11,477 bases of DNA from a virus (taxonomy: Duplodnaviria; Heunggongvirae; Uroviricota; Caudoviricetes). Under the pieces are notes generated by a model that searched no databases, was not told the DNA's origin, and was given only the letters and a program-made list of their open reading frames with translations. Made by a program: the position numbers and the translations under genes. The stretch is taken from IMG/VR virus record IMGVR_UViG_2778261182_000004; one strand, 5' to 3'. Shown piece after piece: positions 3,891 through 11,477 of this stretch (positions within the stretch are counted from its first letter, which is position 1; the number at the start of each line of letters is the position of its first letter).

Positions 3891-4208
3891 CTACAAAGGA
3901 ATAAAACGATAAGGCTCCAGCAGAGAAGAAAAACCAAACGGGACTGGTGCCTTGCTGACATCTGAGGAATTTTCCCGGTTTTCGTACCAGTGTCCGACCA
4001 GCAACATGAGCGCCAGCAAAACATCATCAGCTATAAGCACCCCGTCAGGATCACCTTCCGGCACCGTCTCCTCATAAAGCTTACGGTTGATAAAATTTTC
4101 TGCCTTGCGGCAGGCCGCCCGGAAATACAGCATCAGTAACTCATCATCAGTTGCATCATCTGTATCAATACGGCACTGCGCCCTGAGTTTTTCCACTATT
4201 GCTGCCAT
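3891..4208 (-). CDS. Head-tail connector or adaptor (gp6-like)
   Basis: 105 aa, first gene after the capsid gene; AGGAG about 5 nt upstream of the ATG. Assignment by position and size. Confidence 0.6.
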   Translation of the reverse strand: MAAIVEKLRAQCRIDTDDATDDELLMLYFRAACRKAENFINRKLYEETVPEGDPDGVLIADDVLLALMLLVGHWYENRENSSDVSKAPVPFGFSSLLEPYRFIPL

Positions 4209-4284: not shown

Positions 4285-5502
4285 TTATTTGCCAGTGAGC
4301 GCCTTAATGGCTGCCACATCTTCCAGCACACAGTCAAAACGATGGAAAGCCAGAAATGCCACCTGATCAAACTCAGCATAACGCTCAACCAGACGTTTCA
4401 GTTCCATATAAGTAACGCGGCGAATGATAAAGCGGTTGAAATCCCCCAGGAAAATGAATTTTTTCCCGGTACCAATCCCGTCAATAGCCTGATCAATAAC
4501 ATAAGGGATCCCCAGCACAGTAGCTGGCGTACCGCCTGCAATATCCGGCAGCCATAACGGGCGTTTCTGTCCATCCTCCATCTCTTCAATAGTCTGCAAT
4601 GTGGCATCATTGAATGCCCAGCGGTATTTCGGCCCACCACGATATGCCGGATCAATGGCATGTTTCAGGGCATTCATTTCTTTCCAGGTGAAAGCGGCAG
4701 AAGCTGCAGTCTGGATAGTTCCCGTCACCGACGCTGCCAGCCCTTTTGGCTGTAACGGTGATCCCGTTCCGGTCCCCTGAACCAGATATTTTGCCTCTCC
4801 ACGACCAATACGCTGGGCAATACGGTTTGCCAGATAAGATTCAATATCCACCCCACTGTCCTGGAGCAGCTCATTGGACACACGAATTATTTTTGATGAC
4901 AGCTTTTTAGCCCCCAGAATAGCAGTCCCGAACGTCACATCCTGCTCCGTTGCGGCTGTATTTTCCGCCAGCAGTTCGCCCTCTTCAGTCGTGCCGTCAG
5001 ACGTTGACCAGGTGATATCCTGCCCGGTTGATGTGGTCAGAAGTTGTGCCACACTGGCAATCCCGCCATAAGCCTTCATGGTGTCAATGATTTTGTTACG
5101 CATCTGCGTGGGCACCGTATATCCGCCCTGAGAATCCGTTGTTACACTCTGAGCCCGCAGTTCACGCATCAGATTACGCTCTTCAGCATTCAGTTCTGCA
5201 AATCCGGCACGCAGAAAACGGTTAAATGCCGCAGCACGCTTCTCTTCCACCGCCTTTTTCCCGTTCTCCGCCTCATTATTCTGGCGCTCTTCCGGCCCGG
5301 ACTCATCCACATATGCCTGATCCTGACGGCGCAACTCTTCTTCACGGGCGATTTGCTCATCCAGCGCATCCAGCTCAGCTTTCGCCCTGTTCCACTCAGC
5401 CCGTTGCTCATCAGTCCATGCGTTATCACCAATTTTTTCATGCAGTGCACGCATATCCTTTGCAATGGTGTTTCGTTTTTGCTTCATCTCATGAAGTTTC
5501 AT
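4285..5502 (-). CDS. Major capsid protein, HK97 fold, with N-terminal delta (scaffolding) domain
   Basis: 405 aa; the first ~100 residues are charged and Ala/Glu/Arg-rich (coiled-coil-like), followed by a capsid-like body. No separate scaffold gene. Confidence 0.9.
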   Translation of the reverse strand: MKLHEMKQKRNTIAKDMRALHEKIGDNAWTDEQRAEWNRAKAELDALDEQIAREEELRRQDQAYVDESGPEERQNNEAENGKKAVEEKRAAAFNRFLRAGFAELNAEERNLMRELRAQSVTTDSQGGYTVPTQMRNKIIDTMKAYGGIASVAQLLTTSTGQDITWSTSDGTTEEGELLAENTAATEQDVTFGTAILGAKKLSSKIIRVSNELLQDSGVDIESYLANRIAQRIGRGEAKYLVQGTGTGSPLQPKGLAASVTGTIQTAASAAFTWKEMNALKHAIDPAYRGGPKYRWAFNDATLQTIEEMEDGQKRPLWLPDIAGGTPATVLGIPYVIDQAIDGIGTGKKFIFLGDFNRFIIRRVTYMELKRLVERYAEFDQVAFLAFHRFDCVLEDVAAIKALTGK

Positions 5503-7482: not shown

Positions 7483-9240
7483 TCACAGAATTAACAGGTC
7501 CTCATCAGGATCAAGCGTGGACAGAAAGTCATTCACGTCCCCGCCATTTACCAGAAAGCGGCTCATGGCCGTAAAAAGCGCAACAGGGCCGTCGATTTTG
7601 GCTTCAGGCGTGGATTTATTCGGGAAGATATTGTCGTTTTTGTCCGGTTTTACCGTAACGTTAGACATCATCCAGTTCATGACCGGATGATTGCTGTGAT
7701 GGAAACGCCCGGCATAGACCAGTGATTCCGTTTCCTTCATGGCCTCTGACAGATTGCGGACCGTCTGCGGAACCTCCACCAGCGGTATCCCTTCTTCAGC
7801 CAGTGCCAGGCTGAACTGCATCGCGCTCCACGGGTCAAATCCCAGTTCCCTGAGGTTTTCACCACCAATCCATTCCAGTAAGTCACTTTTTATCTGAGCA
7901 TGATCGATAACATCACCATCCGTCAGAATCAGCTTATCCATCTCCGCCCACTTCCGGTAAAGTTCTGCCTGCTGCCGCGAGCATCGTTCCAGCCGTCCTT
8001 CCGGGAGCCAGAATTTAAAATCGGCATGAACATGCCCGTTATCCGTTCGCCAGAGTTTTGCCGCCGCACAGATATCAATCTTATGAGCAAGGTCAACGCC
8101 GACCCACATGGGATACGTTTTCAGCTCATGTCGTGGGGCAATGTATTCGCACTTCTCCCACTTAATCATGTCCATCCAGGCAGACTCGGCAGTGACCCAC
8201 ACATTCATGTGTTTGGTAAAAAAATTCACCCGCGCAGAGACCTGCTCCTTCGCTTTTTTCGCCAGACGACGCAGATCATCCCAGCGTTTACAGATGCCCA
8301 GGCCAGGATTCGCTTTCTGCCAGACCGTTTCATCAAACGGATCATCTCCCTCATCGAGGGTGTAAATGATCGCAAAGTAAGAGTCGTCTTTTACAGCGCC
8401 CTCCACGTCGCTGTTATAGCCACGCAATACCTTGATGGCGTAATCACGCTGCTCGTAACAAATCCCTTCCTTGTTAAACCCTGCCGTGGTGATACCAAAT
8501 AAAAGGGACTGCAGACGGGCACCGGTTGCCGTTTCCAGAACGTCCCACACGTCACGGGTTTTATGTGCATGCAGCTCATCAATAATGGCGCAGTGGATGT
8601 TCAGACCGTCCAGGTTGTTTGCATCCGAGGAAAGCGGTTCAAATTTTGATGCGCTCTGCTCCTGGTAAATCGCCAGCTTGTTGAAGTCAAACAACCGCCC
8701 GAGTGTCGACCGGGCTTTTCTGACCATATTTTTGGCGTCTTCAAACACGATTCTGGCCTGATCACGCGTGGTTGCGGCTGAATACACCTCAGCCCCGCCT
8801 TCACCATCTGCCCCCGTCATATACAGACCAATACCCGATGACAGGGTTGATTTTGCGTTTTTACGGGCAACTTCGTTGTACGCCGTCCGGAACCGGCGCA
8901 CCATCACCGGGCGTCCGCTGCCATCGCTGCGCATGACAACTTCCCCGGTCTCTTCATTCACCAGCGGAATGACAAAACCAAAAATATTAATGAGGATAAA
9001 TACATGCCAGTCCATCAATTCAATGGGCTGGCCTGCCAGCGCCCCTTTCACATGAGGCACAAATTTGTAGAAATTCAGGATGTGCTGCGCACGGGGTTCA
9101 CTGAAATAAATCCCCCGCTCTTCGCCATACTTCAGATCATCAAGAAAACGCTGGCAGGCCAGACGGACAAATTCGCCAGCGACTATTTCTCCTGCAACAA
9201 CACGTTCGGCGTAGCGGATCCCGTCAGCCACTTTTGCCAT
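7483..9240 (-). CDS. Terminase large subunit
   Basis: 585 aa; ATPase-like N-terminal half with a Walker-A-like KNAKST, nuclease-like C-terminal half; located between TerS and portal. Confidence 0.9.
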   Translation of the reverse strand: MAKVADGIRYAERVVAGEIVAGEFVRLACQRFLDDLKYGEERGIYFSEPRAQHILNFYKFVPHVKGALAGQPIELMDWHVFILINIFGFVIPLVNEETGEVVMRSDGSGRPVMVRRFRTAYNEVARKNAKSTLSSGIGLYMTGADGEGGAEVYSAATTRDQARIVFEDAKNMVRKARSTLGRLFDFNKLAIYQEQSASKFEPLSSDANNLDGLNIHCAIIDELHAHKTRDVWDVLETATGARLQSLLFGITTAGFNKEGICYEQRDYAIKVLRGYNSDVEGAVKDDSYFAIIYTLDEGDDPFDETVWQKANPGLGICKRWDDLRRLAKKAKEQVSARVNFFTKHMNVWVTAESAWMDMIKWEKCEYIAPRHELKTYPMWVGVDLAHKIDICAAAKLWRTDNGHVHADFKFWLPEGRLERCSRQQAELYRKWAEMDKLILTDGDVIDHAQIKSDLLEWIGGENLRELGFDPWSAMQFSLALAEEGIPLVEVPQTVRNLSEAMKETESLVYAGRFHHSNHPVMNWMMSNVTVKPDKNDNIFPNKSTPEAKIDGPVALFTAMSRFLVNGGDVNDFLSTLDPDEDLLIL

Positions 9241-9869: not shown

Positions 9870-10220
9870 TCAATTGATGCGTTCGCGCGCTGTTTTTGCT
9901 TTATGACAGGGCCAGCACAGACTCTGCAGGTTACTGTCTGCATCCGTGCCACCATGAGCTTTCGGAATGATGTGGTCCACAGTTCTGGCTTCAACGGCTA
10001 TCCCATTGCGCAGGCAGTTCTGACACAGATGATTATCACGCTTCAGTATGCGCGCACGTATGGCATCCCATTTCGAGCCATAGCCACGCTGGTGGCGGCT
10101 CAGTCCGCGCTGGTGCTGCACCCAGCCTTCACCCCGATGTTTATCGCAGTAACCAGAACTGTCTGTGGTTGTACCTGCACATCCACGCTTACGGCAGGCG
10201 CGTGGGATTAGTGATGGCAT
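9870..10220 (-). CDS. HNH endonuclease, terminase-associated (HK97 gp74-like)
   Basis: Cys and His pattern (C..C...H...C..C, DHIIPKAHGG, CWPCH) typical of HNH zinc-finger nucleases; GAGGAG upstream of the ATG; sits immediately upstream of the small terminase gene. Confidence 0.85.
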   Translation of the reverse strand: MPSLIPRACRKRGCAGTTTDSSGYCDKHRGEGWVQHQRGLSRHQRGYGSKWDAIRARILKRDNHLCQNCLRNGIAVEARTVDHIIPKAHGGTDADSNLQSLCWPCHKAKTARERIN

Positions 10221-10263: not shown

Positions 10264-10446
10264 TCAGTTCTGCATACACTGCCGGACACTATCAACAATT
10301 TCGCAGACCTGAGAAGCTGTATCGAAAAGCTGGTGCGCCTTATCCAGGCTGACGCATCCCACCAATAAAAAAGGCACCAGTATCGCTACCAGTGCCCATT
10401 TCGCCGCCGTTCGCGGCATTCTGTGTGTCCAGTGTTTTCGGCTCAT
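10264..10446 (-). CDS. Hypothetical small lipoprotein or signal-anchored protein with Cys-containing C-terminal region
   Basis: ORF track 60 aa. Segment MPRTAAKWALVAILVPFLLVGC is a canonical signal peptide ending in a lipobox-like LVGC; the short mature part has three Cys (VCEIVDSVRQC). The real start may be the internal Met (ATG 10419..10417). Confidence 0.45.
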   Translation of the reverse strand: MSRKHWTHRMPRTAAKWALVAILVPFLLVGCVSLDKAHQLFDTASQVCEIVDSVRQCMQN

Positions 10447-10447
10447 A

Positions 10448-10561
10448 TCACCACCAACGCACAGCCCAAATCAGAACAGCGACCGCCACAAGGCGAATTG
10501 CAAAGGCCGCAGCCCTTGTCAAATCAAGGCTCGCGGGAGTTTCCACTTCAATACCTTTCAT
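10448..10561 (-). CDS. Hypothetical 37-aa membrane peptide, polar N-terminus and C-terminal hydrophobic segment
   Basis: My own translation: MKGIEVETPASLDLTRAAAFAIRLVAVAVLIWAVRWW. ATG at 10561..10559 with GAGG 9 nt upstream; TGA stop at 10450..10448, 1 nt before the next gene's ATG. Below the ORF track size cutoff. Confidence 0.3.
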   Translation of the reverse strand: MKGIEVETPASLDLTRAAAFAIRLVAVAVLIWAVRWW

Positions 10562-10652
10562 AATGGACAACCTCAAAAAGAATCTTTTATACTTTCCCAC
10601 GAGGATTTTCTCCGTACTCACTACTCACAATTTCCTCTTTGACGTGAAAACT

Positions 10653-10687
10653 AAAAACCCCGGACTGTTCCAGCAGCCGGGGTTTTT
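10653..10687. terminator. Bidirectional intrinsic terminator
   Basis: AAAAA CCCCGG aCTG ttccag CAG CCGGGG TTTTT: a GC stem of about 9 bp with one bulge, flanked by an A-run and a T-run, so either transcript ends in a U-run. Confidence 0.6.
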
Positions 10688-10789
10688 GCTATCTGATGCT
10701 GTACCCCTTACTTTCACTCATCGTAACCCCAGAAAAGAGCCTGCGTGAGTTGAGGGTGTTCAGCACTTCAGCGTCATTTTTTAAACTGC

Positions 10790-11335
10790 TTAAACTGCTA
10801 CGCGCTCTTTCATCCAGCCGTAGACAAACGACTCGTTGGCCTCGCGTTTTTCTGCCAGCTCCAGATAGCGGTCGCCCTGCGTGCAATTCAGCGCCTTCAG
10901 CATCACCAGTTCGCCGTCTTTGCCGCGTTTTTGCAGATAAGTCCGTAGTGCATTAATCGTGCGGGGGCCGATACGCCCGTCTGCGTCCATATCCGGGAAC
11001 AATTTGCCTTGCAGGTTGAAAACGTTCAGCCAGCGCTGGAGCATTTTCGATGCTACGGACGGCCCCATATTCACACCGGTATCACACAACTCTGCAGCAA
11101 TATCAGAGGATAATGCGGCCACCTGATCAAAGCGTGGTCCGAACCAGTAATCCTCCTCAAGGATTTCCAGCGCCTGTTCGCGTGTCAGGTCACGCATATC
11201 GCCCTGATATCCGTGAGCGCGGGCGACTTTTTCCGTAATACCCCATTTTGTCGGTCCGCCTTTATCATCCGGGTGATTGACGTAACCGCCCTCTTTTCCC
11301 AGAACTTCGTCAAAAATTTCATCTTTCGACTTCAT
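10790..11335 (-). CDS. Endolysin, GH108-like N-terminal domain with probable peptidoglycan-binding C-terminal domain
   Basis: N-terminal motif EGGYVNHPDDKGGPTKWGIT matches my recollection of the glycoside hydrolase 108 family; no signal or SAR segment. The ORF track starts at 11356 on a TTG codon; an ATG at 11335..11333 preceded by GAAGG about 7 nt upstream is the more likely start. Confidence 0.75.
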   Translation of the reverse strand: MKSKDEIFDEVLGKEGGYVNHPDDKGGPTKWGITEKVARAHGYQGDMRDLTREQALEILEEDYWFGPRFDQVAALSSDIAAELCDTGVNMGPSVASKMLQRWLNVFNLQGKLFPDMDADGRIGPRTINALRTYLQKRGKDGELVMLKALNCTQGDRYLELAEKREANESFVYGWMKERVAV

Positions 11336-11336
11336 A

Positions 11337-11477
11337 TCAGCGCCTTCGTAATACAAAGATTTTTGAAACGTTTCCGCGTGCGCGAATCACCAACACGCAG
11401 AACAGCAGATTAAGCCCAACCGCCAGCCAGTTCGCCGCTAACGGGCGACCGCACAGATAGCTGAGTGGCGCAAAGGC
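11337..11477 (-). CDS. Putative holin, C-terminal part only (5' end beyond window)
   Basis: My own translation of the minus strand from 11477 gives 46 open codons, AFAPLSYLCGRPLAANWLAVGLNLLFCVLVIRARGNVSKIFVLRRR, ending TGA at 11339..11337, one nt before the endolysin ATG. Hydrophobic stretch plus basic tail and position directly upstream of the endolysin fit a holin. Not in the ORF track because it is incomplete. Confidence 0.4.
   Translation of the reverse strand, partial: AFAPLSYLCGRPLAANWLAVGLNLLFCVLVIRARGNVSKIFVLRRR

Follow-up and report, generated by a model that had tools for sequence, protein, structure and literature searches.

How does a phage that carries a holin, an endolysin and no recognizable spanin cross the outer membrane of its host at lysis? 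This question is raised by the IMG/VR record IMGVR_UViG_2778261182_000004, an 11,477-nucleotide stretch of Caudoviricetes DNA (the window) in which all genes lie on the minus strand. Approximately 13-15% of the phages of Gram-negative hosts have no identifiable spanin, and the only solved alternative route through the outer membrane is the disruptin. The first-pass annotation of the window left two alternatives: the spanin function is encoded elsewhere, or a pair of small membrane proteins encoded downstream of the endolysin gene substitutes for it. The pair exists as described and consists of a 37-amino acid (aa) protein and a 60-aa lipoprotein precursor. Comparative data favor the second alternative for the lipoprotein only and not for the 37-aa protein, which is optional and is also encoded upstream of the spanin genes Rz/Rz1 in other prophages. 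We propose, as an even call, that the lipoprotein functions as a partner-less outer-membrane lysis lipoprotein, a role that is unproven. The argument starts from the following genes of the window.

10264..10446, minus strand: 60-aa lipoprotein precursor MSRKHWTHRMPRTAAKWALVAILVPFLLVGCVSLDKAHQLFDTASQVCEIVDSVRQCMQN, with the lipobox LLVG-C31 and a match to phrog_7528
10448..10561, minus strand: 37-aa small membrane protein MKGIEVETPASLDLTRAAAFAIRLVAVAVLIWAVRWW, with a C-terminal transmembrane segment and a match to phrog_4493
9870..10220, minus strand: HNH endonuclease (PF01844, E 4.1e-16), which opens the P27-type packaging module

More than 100 loci with a homologue of the lipoprotein were collected from annotated phages, IMG/VR, GTDB genomes and assembly look-ups, and their components were mapped by tblastn. 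In the approximately 100 loci that have an endolysin gene in view (six truncated loci do not), the lipoprotein gene always follows one or more holin genes and the gene for an endolysin of the M15 (M15_4 peptidase) or GH108 type. The M15 stop codon and the lipoprotein start codon are separated by 14-15 nt in 36 loci. Two GH108 loci, L090 and the Lelliottia locus L106, have gaps of -4 and +4 nt, respectively, and the GH108 gene overlaps the lipoprotein gene in the Yersinia enterocolitica loci and the metagenomic locus L113. Loci L110-112 combine another holin (Phage_holin_3_1) with an M15 endolysin gene that is followed after 6 nt by the lipoprotein gene. The modules on the 3' side of the lipoprotein gene vary and comprise HNH plus TerS_P27, lambda-type Nu1/gpA, Terminase_2 or extra open reading frames (ORFs). 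Therefore, the lipoprotein gene travels with the lysis module. The lipoprotein gene is the conserved last gene of that module, whatever the endolysin, holin or packaging type. In the window, the genes for the HNH endonuclease and the P27-family terminase lie directly downstream of the lipoprotein gene, and the HNH gene marks the downstream limit of the lysis module.

Is a spanin encoded elsewhere in the prophage? The best Escherichia coli match to the window is strain AH19B041 (L001), with 96% identity over 1.8 kb. Its complete prophage begins with the integrase, early genes, the gene for the Q antiterminator, a methyltransferase gene, tRNAs and two holin genes (holin_8, 130 aa; holin_3_7, 92 aa), and continues with the GH108, 37-aa, 60-aa, HNH, terminase, head and tail genes; no spanin is annotated in it. 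To our knowledge, every spanin system needs a lipoprotein. All reading frames were scanned for lipobox-containing ORFs with a procedure that recovers Rz1 in control loci. The 60-aa gene is the only lipobox ORF in the window and the sole credible one in the complete AH19B041 prophage, where two further candidates are implausible (a TTG-initiated ORF on the opposite strand and a weak ORF of 37 aa). No other credible lipobox ORF was found on the same strand from -3.5 to +2.5 kb around 95 lipoprotein sites. Moreover, no protein of the window matches the spanin families of Pfam, PHROG or NCBIfam, and no small protein matches PF03245 (Phage_lysis) or PF06085 (Rz1) even at E <= 10. The first-pass annotation held that no spanin-like gene is present downstream of the endolysin gene or embedded in it. 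The embedded part stands, with no lipobox ORF in any reading frame of the endolysin gene, and the near-identical AH19B041 prophage likewise contains no canonical spanin, including upstream of the holin genes. The downstream part stands only for spanins of the Rz/Rz1 and T1 gp11 types, neither of which occurs in the window; the lipoprotein itself is 90% identical to a protein that was catalogued as the o-spanin (outer-membrane subunit) of phage phiP27.

The lipoprotein occupies the slot of Rz/Rz1, because Stx-type prophages contain the same 37-aa gene directly before Rz/Rz1, with an identical TGATATG junction. In the window, a single T separates the TGA stop codon of the 37-aa gene from the ATG of the lipoprotein gene; this is the second TGA-T-ATG junction of the window. 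In the Stx-type prophages, which encode a class II holin and an endolysin of the T4-lysozyme family, the 37-aa gene stands directly before Rz (PF03245) with its embedded Rz1 (PF06085). The junction TGGTGGTGATATG after the 37-aa gene is identical in both settings (common context, CGT TGG TGG TGA T ATG) and leads into the lipoprotein gene in the window and into Rz/Rz1 in the Stx-type prophages. The homology of the P27-type and Stx-type cassettes extends from the terminator region up to the junction ATG and then ends, so that the 37-aa gene comes before either the lipoprotein gene or Rz/Rz1, depending on the cassette. Phage GER2 (L004) is the sole locus that contains both Rz/Rz1 and the lipoprotein gene, and its lipoprotein gene is an unannotated, frameshifted remnant (4480-4680) that keeps a remnant of the GTGGTGATATG junction upstream. 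Upstream of this remnant, the locus contains the 37-aa gene, which is intact, together with Rz/Rz1 and a phosphatase cargo gene in reverse orientation. The decay of the lipoprotein gene in GER2 is what redundancy with Rz/Rz1 would predict, although it is a single case.

What kind of protein is the 60-aa lipoprotein? It belongs to phrog_7528 (5.3e-38), a PHROG family of unknown function. The precursor contains a basic N-region MSRKHWTHRMPR, a hydrophobic core and the lipobox LLVG-C31, with valine at position +2. The mature part comprises 30 residues with a net charge of -2, two cysteines (Cys48 and Cys57) and a heptad-like hydrophobic face, whose conserved hydrophobic positions are 34, 37, 40/41, 44, 47/48, 50/51, 54 and 57/58. 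Its mean hydrophobic moment of 0.28 is reached by 10% of shuffled sequences and is not exceptional. AlphaFold (AF2) predicts a single helix spanning residues 12-59 with moderate confidence (predicted local distance difference test score, 69). Homologues from Escherichia, Salmonella, Citrobacter, Cronobacter, Enterobacter, Lelliottia and Yersinia were aligned. Across the alignments, the hydrophobic region and lipobox (A18 to C31) vary little or not at all, Cys48 never varies, and the second cysteine is kept at position 57 (58 in one subclade). The N-terminal motif M-x-R-K-H-W-T-H-R-x-P-R is conserved as well, and such a long His/Arg-rich N-region (residues 1-16) is unusual. Residues R3, T7, H8, R9 and P11 are retained through synonymous codon changes and Met10 is not conserved; therefore, translation starts at M1. 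The alternative M10 start, which is used by some annotations, was ruled out by the variability of Met10 and the protein-level conservation upstream of it. Purifying selection is visible in the gene.

The family is confined to Enterobacteriaceae and Yersinia, including in a profile-based search of a 5.8-billion-protein database, and the same search yielded no distant homologue with an i-spanin (inner-membrane subunit) partner. Neither the 37-aa nor the 60-aa protein matches Pfam (E <= 10), NCBIfam or PADLOC, and a profile search with the lipoprotein alignment against solved structures returned only a designed repeat protein and chance matches. The mature lipoprotein shares the hydrophobic register of the N-terminal half of Lpp, counted from the lipid-bearing cysteine, with 7 of 28 residues identical by eye. 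Kinship with Lpp was nevertheless set aside as a weak lead, given that hhalign assigns it a probability of only 42% over 27 columns that mostly cover the signal peptide and that the Pfam LPP family gives no match. The lipoprotein gene is present in 307 of 5,426 complete E. coli genomes, where it is annotated as "hypothetical" or left unannotated, and the genomes that bear it include Stx2e, Stx2k and LT-II toxin prophages. A lipoprotein with 93% identity also occurs in an E. coli-type cassette of PP818812.1 (L005), the "Actinobacillus phage vB_Apl-pPE4" attributed to Actinobacillus pleuropneumoniae. In this record, a KilA-N gene lies between the endolysin gene and the unannotated lipoprotein gene, and the host attribution looks odd.

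The signal peptide of the lipoprotein is more conserved than its mature peptide, which is unusual. The cytoplasmic N-region is likewise more conserved than the mature part, and this pattern may point to a role at the inner membrane. It brings up the explanation that the cassette is truly spanin-less and that the lipoprotein, alone or with the 37-aa protein, controls the timing of lysis or the action of the holin or endolysin in the manner of an antiholin or Lcc6, with the outer membrane failing passively or through another factor. Small membrane proteins that are needed at the holin step do exist, such as the 65-aa Lcc6 of LambdaSo, and the two holin-family genes of the cassette suggest an elaborate control of timing. 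However, the lipoprotein is found with unrelated holins (holin_8 plus holin_3_7, or holin_3_1) and unrelated endolysins (M15 and GH108), which argues against a specific partner. The invariance of the lipobox indicates that lipidation and export matter, and the lipoprotein gene sits at the homologous junction that Rz/Rz1 hold in sister cassettes. We thus consider a regulatory role unlikely.

How does the lipoprotein compare with known effectors of outer-membrane disruption? It resembles an o-spanin in having a lipobox with a residue other than Asp at +2 (LLVG-C31-V), and it contains the periplasmic cysteines that are expected of spanins (Cys48 and Cys57/58). Lambda Rz/Rz1 shares with it the post-endolysin position in the late operon, a 60-aa precursor, an outer-membrane lipoprotein and conserved periplasmic cysteines. 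In contrast to lambda, the cassette of the window has neither an inner-membrane coiled-coil subunit nor embedded genes, and the mature part of Rz1 is proline-rich and unstructured, whereas that of the lipoprotein is helical and contains no proline. No ORF for an adjoining inner-membrane coiled-coil i-spanin of type II topology (N-in, C-out) lies between the endolysin and HNH genes in the window, and the tight cassettes of the relatives leave no room for an i-spanin gene. The lipoprotein is not a canonical spanin, because an inner-membrane subunit is missing and a helix of approximately 4.4 nm falls short of the inner membrane. It also differs from a unimolecular spanin of the T1 gp11 type, since it ends with VRQCMQN and has no C-terminal hydrophobic segment.

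Two other classes of small lytic proteins show partial resemblance. The disruptin gp28 of phage phiKT is a single small protein that was proposed or shown to replace spanins in a cassette lacking them. This protein is cationic and resembles antimicrobial peptides, whereas the lipoprotein is lipid-anchored and anionic (net -2) and thus does not fit the small, cationic, amphipathic profile of a disruptin; the only cationic stretch is a hypothetical 13-residue N-terminal extension of the 37-aa protein. Colicin lysis proteins, or bacteriocin release proteins (PF02402), are very small lipoproteins with a mature part of approximately 30 aa, like the lipoprotein. Their production permeabilizes the cell envelope, and a stable signal peptide contributes to this effect. 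However, they belong to colicin operons, whereas the lipoprotein is encoded in a phage late operon, is helical, contains two extra cysteines and has no sequence similarity to them or Pfam match.

Could the two small proteins together form a miniature two-component spanin? In such a system, the lipoprotein would serve as the o-spanin and fuse the membranes, as Rz/Rz1 do, with either the 37-aa protein (type I, N-out, C-in) or an unrecognized inner-membrane protein as its partner. A precedent is offered by the spanin census of 677 phage genomes by Kongari et al. 2018 (PMC6139136), which reports a periplasmic range of 62-300 residues and classes phiP27 as a "separated" two-component spanin. Both phiP27 proteins form singleton families, and their 62 periplasmic residues are the shortest in the census (PMC6139136). 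The census i-spanin (20348-20542) has 64 aa with 32 periplasmic residues, and the o-spanin (20706-20861) has 51 aa with 30 mature residues, 83% of which are predicted to be helical; the assignment rests on bioinformatics only (PMC6139136). Kongari et al. also list 31 genomes with a lipoprotein that lacks a linked i-spanin and allow other i-spanin topologies, such as a type I protein with a C-terminal transmembrane segment (PMC6139136). The census o-spanin of phiP27, to which the lipoprotein of the window is 90% identical, corresponds to the M10-start version, and the two agree in mature length (30 aa), helix prediction and cassette type. The census i-spanin ORF is a different matter. It starts with TTG, runs antisense to a 90-aa ORF (L002 5210-5482) within a phiP27-specific insert (L002 5272-5466, minus strand), occurs in the phiP27 locus only among the approximately 100 loci and is absent from the window. 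The phiP27 pair is not a conserved two-component system, because its i-spanin ORF is found in one locus only. We therefore rejected this i-spanin as unsupported, considering its lack of conservation, its TTG start, its antisense orientation and the absence of space in tight cassettes; the ORF is probably not a gene.

A miniature spanin built with the 37-aa protein is consistent with the translational coupling of the two genes in the window (TGA-T-ATG), with the conserved periplasmic cysteines, which fit the spanin rule, and with protein P0005, a natural fusion of a transmembrane segment to the lipoprotein. The type I topology makes the 37-aa protein conceivable as an i-spanin under the scheme of Kongari et al. 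(PMC6139136). However, the 37-aa gene is missing from most lipoprotein cassettes, including all 38 tight junctions and the Yersinia, Citrobacter, Lelliottia and holin_3_1 loci, and the same gene stands upstream of a complete Rz/Rz1 in the Stx-type prophages. The 30 mature residues of the lipoprotein and at most 16 residues of the 37-aa protein give a combined periplasmic length of approximately 46 residues, which lies below the census minimum of 62, itself derived from the doubtful phiP27 pair. An unrecognized partner fares no better, given that the census i-spanin ORF is not conserved and that the tight three-gene cassettes encode no coiled-coil inner-membrane protein. A two-component spanin at this locus is thus quite improbable.

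The 37-aa protein belongs to phrog_4493 (3.3e-23), a second PHROG family of unknown function, and hydropathy analysis places a hydrophobic segment at its C-terminus. Copies of its gene lie at 4001-4114 in loci L016-L023 and at 3130-3282 in L004, and one version of the protein is present in at least 1000 contigs. An alignment of the window gene with the Stx-type copy contains, by eye, approximately 16 synonymous differences and 5 conservative replacements. Because synonymous changes outnumber replacements, the 37-aa gene is a real coding gene under strong purifying selection. It has two candidate start codons, ATG 10561 and the in-frame GTG 10600, each with a Shine-Dalgarno-like sequence 9 nt upstream; the GTG start would give a 50-aa protein with an additional basic N-terminus of 13 residues. 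The 39 nt between the two start codons are nearly invariant, which fits a coding role, a regulatory role or both. We infer that the 37-aa protein is a lysis accessory that cassettes may or may not carry, and not an obligate partner of the lipoprotein. The P0005 protein (89 aa, E. coli) is an in-frame fusion in which the lipoprotein is preceded by the transmembrane segment of the small protein (...RWWCMTRKHW...) and which apparently arose through loss of the TGA stop codon at the junction.

If the lipoprotein acts in lysis without these partners, how would it do so? In the mechanism that we envisage, RNA polymerase modified by Q, whose gene is present upstream in the AH19B041 prophage, would read through the bidirectional terminator, and the lipoprotein would be made late together with the other lysis proteins and exported by the Sec pathway. 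It would then be lipidated at Cys31 and, given the Val at +2, be directed to the outer membrane, where it would reside in the inner leaflet. After removal of the cell wall by the endolysin, the 29-residue amphipathic, coiled-coil-like helix would destabilize the outer membrane, probably with its helices linked by Cys48/Cys57 disulfides. The lipoprotein would in this way carry out or assist the third step of lysis without a dedicated inner-membrane partner from the phage. The absence of such a dedicated partner is indicated by the lack of a conserved adjoining i-spanin candidate and by the combined length of the lipoprotein and the 37-aa protein, which is too short for the periplasm.

The lipoprotein gene contains a second element that bears on its expression.

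10364..10396, minus strand: terminator-like hairpin within the signal-peptide codons of the lipoprotein gene, GGCACTGGTAGCGATACTGGTGCC followed by a U-run

Codons 17-28 of the gene read GGCACTGGTAGCGATACTGGTGCC and then TTTTTTATT (10396..10364) and were flagged by a terminator scan. Six genes that come from several genera and from metagenomes have identical stem nucleotides but a variable loop (GCGA, GCAA or GCTG), and the exact stem recurs at 95 sites. Among codons for invariant residues, synonymous change was found at 1 of 6 in the stem versus 11 of 13 elsewhere (Fisher p = 0.0095). The stem is therefore constrained at the nucleotide level, which is consistent with an intragenic terminator or attenuator. 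By sequence, the hairpin would silence the lipoprotein and packaging genes in the absence of Q and may operate as a Q-dependent gate or attenuator.

The hairpin bears on the explanation that the lipoprotein is "moron" cargo of the Bor/Cor/Llp kind, with a function in superinfection exclusion, receptor blocking or serum resistance, and that the cassette is truly spanin-less. Small prophage lipoproteins often have such functions, and the lysis/packaging boundary is a hot spot for insertion; lambda bor sits just after Rz. The terminator before the small pair in the window, as at the upstream edge of a moron, and the narrow, host-specific range of the family also suit cargo. However, the conserved intragenic hairpin would block expression without antitermination. 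In every case, the lipoprotein gene has the orientation of the endolysin gene, and the two often overlap or are separated by <=15 nt, so that a separate promoter would not fit between them. The strand of the lipoprotein gene yielded no sigma-70-like promoter, and no promoter for the small pair was convincing. Furthermore, the lipoprotein gene segregates with holin and endolysin genes and not with tail or receptor genes, and it has decayed in GER2, the sole phage that also has Rz/Rz1. Cargo is therefore an improbable explanation of the lipoprotein.

Several points nevertheless weigh against a partner-less lysis lipoprotein. We know of no lone outer-membrane lipoprotein that has been shown to replace a spanin, and the literature offers nothing usable in the way of experimental work on the lysis genes of phiP27 or LT-II prophages. 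The mature peptide is anionic, and neither disruptin nor the colicin lysis proteins nor Rz1 show similarity to it. At approximately 4.4 nm, its helix ends short of the inner membrane, and a disruptive mechanism is conjecture. Position in the lysis cassette is suggestive, not proof, since morons also lodge at lysis/packaging junctions, and the narrow family makes the synteny evidence phylogenetically shallow. Finally, a host protein or a protein encoded at a distance in the phage could serve as the inner-membrane partner.

In its strongest form, which we advance only tentatively and hold to be doubtful, the proposal of a partner-less lysis lipoprotein envisages a third, self-sufficient kind of outer-membrane lysis effector, namely a lipid-anchored, disulfide-stapled helix of 30 residues that works from the inner leaflet of the outer membrane, is distinct from spanins and cationic disruptins and is gated by Q through the intragenic hairpin. 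The unusually conserved, His/Arg-rich signal peptide might aid this effector if it stays behind in the inner membrane, as in colicin release proteins, whose signal peptides are stable. The cassette type is common, and the census counts it as one that has a spanin by way of an inner-membrane partner that is not conserved. The third gene of the cassette appears to be an orphan, for which the catalogue entry "o-spanin" has a weak basis. Should the lipoprotein be sufficient to complete lysis, it would represent a new, minimal mechanism of outer-membrane disruption and could find use as a small lytic module. Otherwise, these widespread prophages, which carry toxin genes, functionally have no spanin, with consequences for how toxins and virions are released. 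The lambda Rz/Rz1 complementation system allows a direct test of the role of the lipoprotein.

The remaining features of the cassette lie upstream of the small pair.

11337..11477, minus strand: holin C-terminus (Phage_holin_3_7), the last 46 codons and stop codon of a holin of the 92-aa class, whose gene runs past the end of the window
10790..11335, minus strand: endolysin of 181 aa with GH108 and PG_binding_3 domains, assigned by profile and structure matches
10689..10721, minus strand: 10-codon ORF (MSESKGYSIR and stop), read directly from the sequence
10646..10687, both strands: bidirectional intrinsic-terminator-like hairpin (stem-loop 10658-10682), with an A-run on one side and a T-run on the other, identified by folding

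The first-pass annotation described a holin C-terminus, a 1-nt spacer, an endolysin, a 10-codon ORF and a bidirectional terminator in this order, and sequence inspection, profile searches and folding bear out each of them. The translation of the ORF at 11477..11337 ends in LLFCVLVIRARGNVSKIFVLRRR before the stop codon, also given as NLLFCVLVIRARGNVSKIFVLRRR. It matches PF05449 (Phage_holin_3_7; E 2.5e-7) at profile positions 42-79 of 80, with a score of 31.1 bits (cut-off 25.4) on only 46 C-terminal holin residues. It also matches the holin family phrog_217 (3e-14) and is identical to the end of the 92-aa "phage holin family protein" in L001. The holin TGA (11339-11337) is followed by a single T (11336) and the endolysin ATG (11335).

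The endolysin, which starts with MKSKDEIFDEVLGKEGGYVNHPDDKGG and whose stop codon lies at 10790-10792, was assigned to the GH108 type and not to the T4-lysozyme or lambda R type on account of the motif EGGYVNHPDDKGG, and the profile searches agree. It covers the whole of PF05838 (Glyco_hydro_108; positions 1-85 of 85; 1.2e-26; 93.5 bits, cut-off 21.2), and its C-terminal domain matches PF09374 (PG_binding_3; 1.3e-25; 89.8 bits, cut-off 24.6). The protein further matches the endolysin family phrog_315 (6e-55), and it scores 75 bits against the NCBIfam "holin-associated N-acetylmuramidase", whose equivalog cut-off is 240. Its best match among solved structures is Sen1395 of Salmonella Enteritidis (PDB 6V3Z; E 1.8e-106; residues 2-180), and residues 13-33 (GKEGGYVNHPDDKGGPTKWGI), which hold the EGGY motif, are aligned identically in Sen1395. 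Sen1395 is a two-domain muramidase, the purified form of which hydrolyzes peptidoglycan, and a phage-type homologue of TtsA, the muramidase of typhoid-toxin secretion (Geiger et al. 2020, PMC6996933). The window endolysin shares with the Sen1395/TtsA family (PDB 6V3Z and 6V40) the GH108 plus PG_binding_3 architecture, a near-equal length and the EGGY motif; unlike TtsA, which is not encoded beside holins, it adjoins holin genes. No signal sequence or signal-arrest-release segment was found in the endolysin; therefore, it should need the holin. By sequence, the protein would be a standard, soluble, Sen1395-like muramidase of an already-known type with nothing new about it.

The hairpin at 10658-10682 is GC-rich and folds with -24.7 and -23.8 kcal/mol on the two strands, and the terminator scan flagged partial stems of the 10646-10687 hairpin. 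The first-pass annotation treated this terminator as the end of the cassette, a view that we do not share. The late operon is Q-antiterminated, and many relatives have no terminator between the endolysin gene and the lipoprotein gene, which follows it immediately or overlaps it. Q-modified RNA polymerase generally passes terminators in lambdoid late operons. The terminator hairpin is found only in loci with the 37-aa gene insert, and the Stx-type cassettes have a hairpin of another sequence at the equivalent position before the 37-aa gene. Together, the terminator and the 37-aa gene form an insertion that is carried by a subset of cassettes. The stretch of the 10-codon ORF is not conserved in alignments with the M15-type relatives, and this ORF is unlikely to be a gene.

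The region is the distal part of a phiP27-type lambdoid lysis cassette in a Q-antiterminated late operon, arranged in the order holin_8 (beyond the window), holin_3_7, GH108 muramidase, insert of terminator and 37-aa gene, 60-aa lipoprotein and HNH/terminase. In the packaging module that follows, the large terminase (TerL) gene of the window is intact (7483-9240). In AH19B041, the large terminase gene is interrupted by an integrated element of approximately 15 kb (L001 3263-18513), which encodes an integrase, a DUF927 primase-like protein, an HK97-type capsid protein, a protease, a portal protein, an HNH endonuclease and a small terminase and looks like a satellite or an element akin to a phage-inducible chromosomal island (PICI-like).

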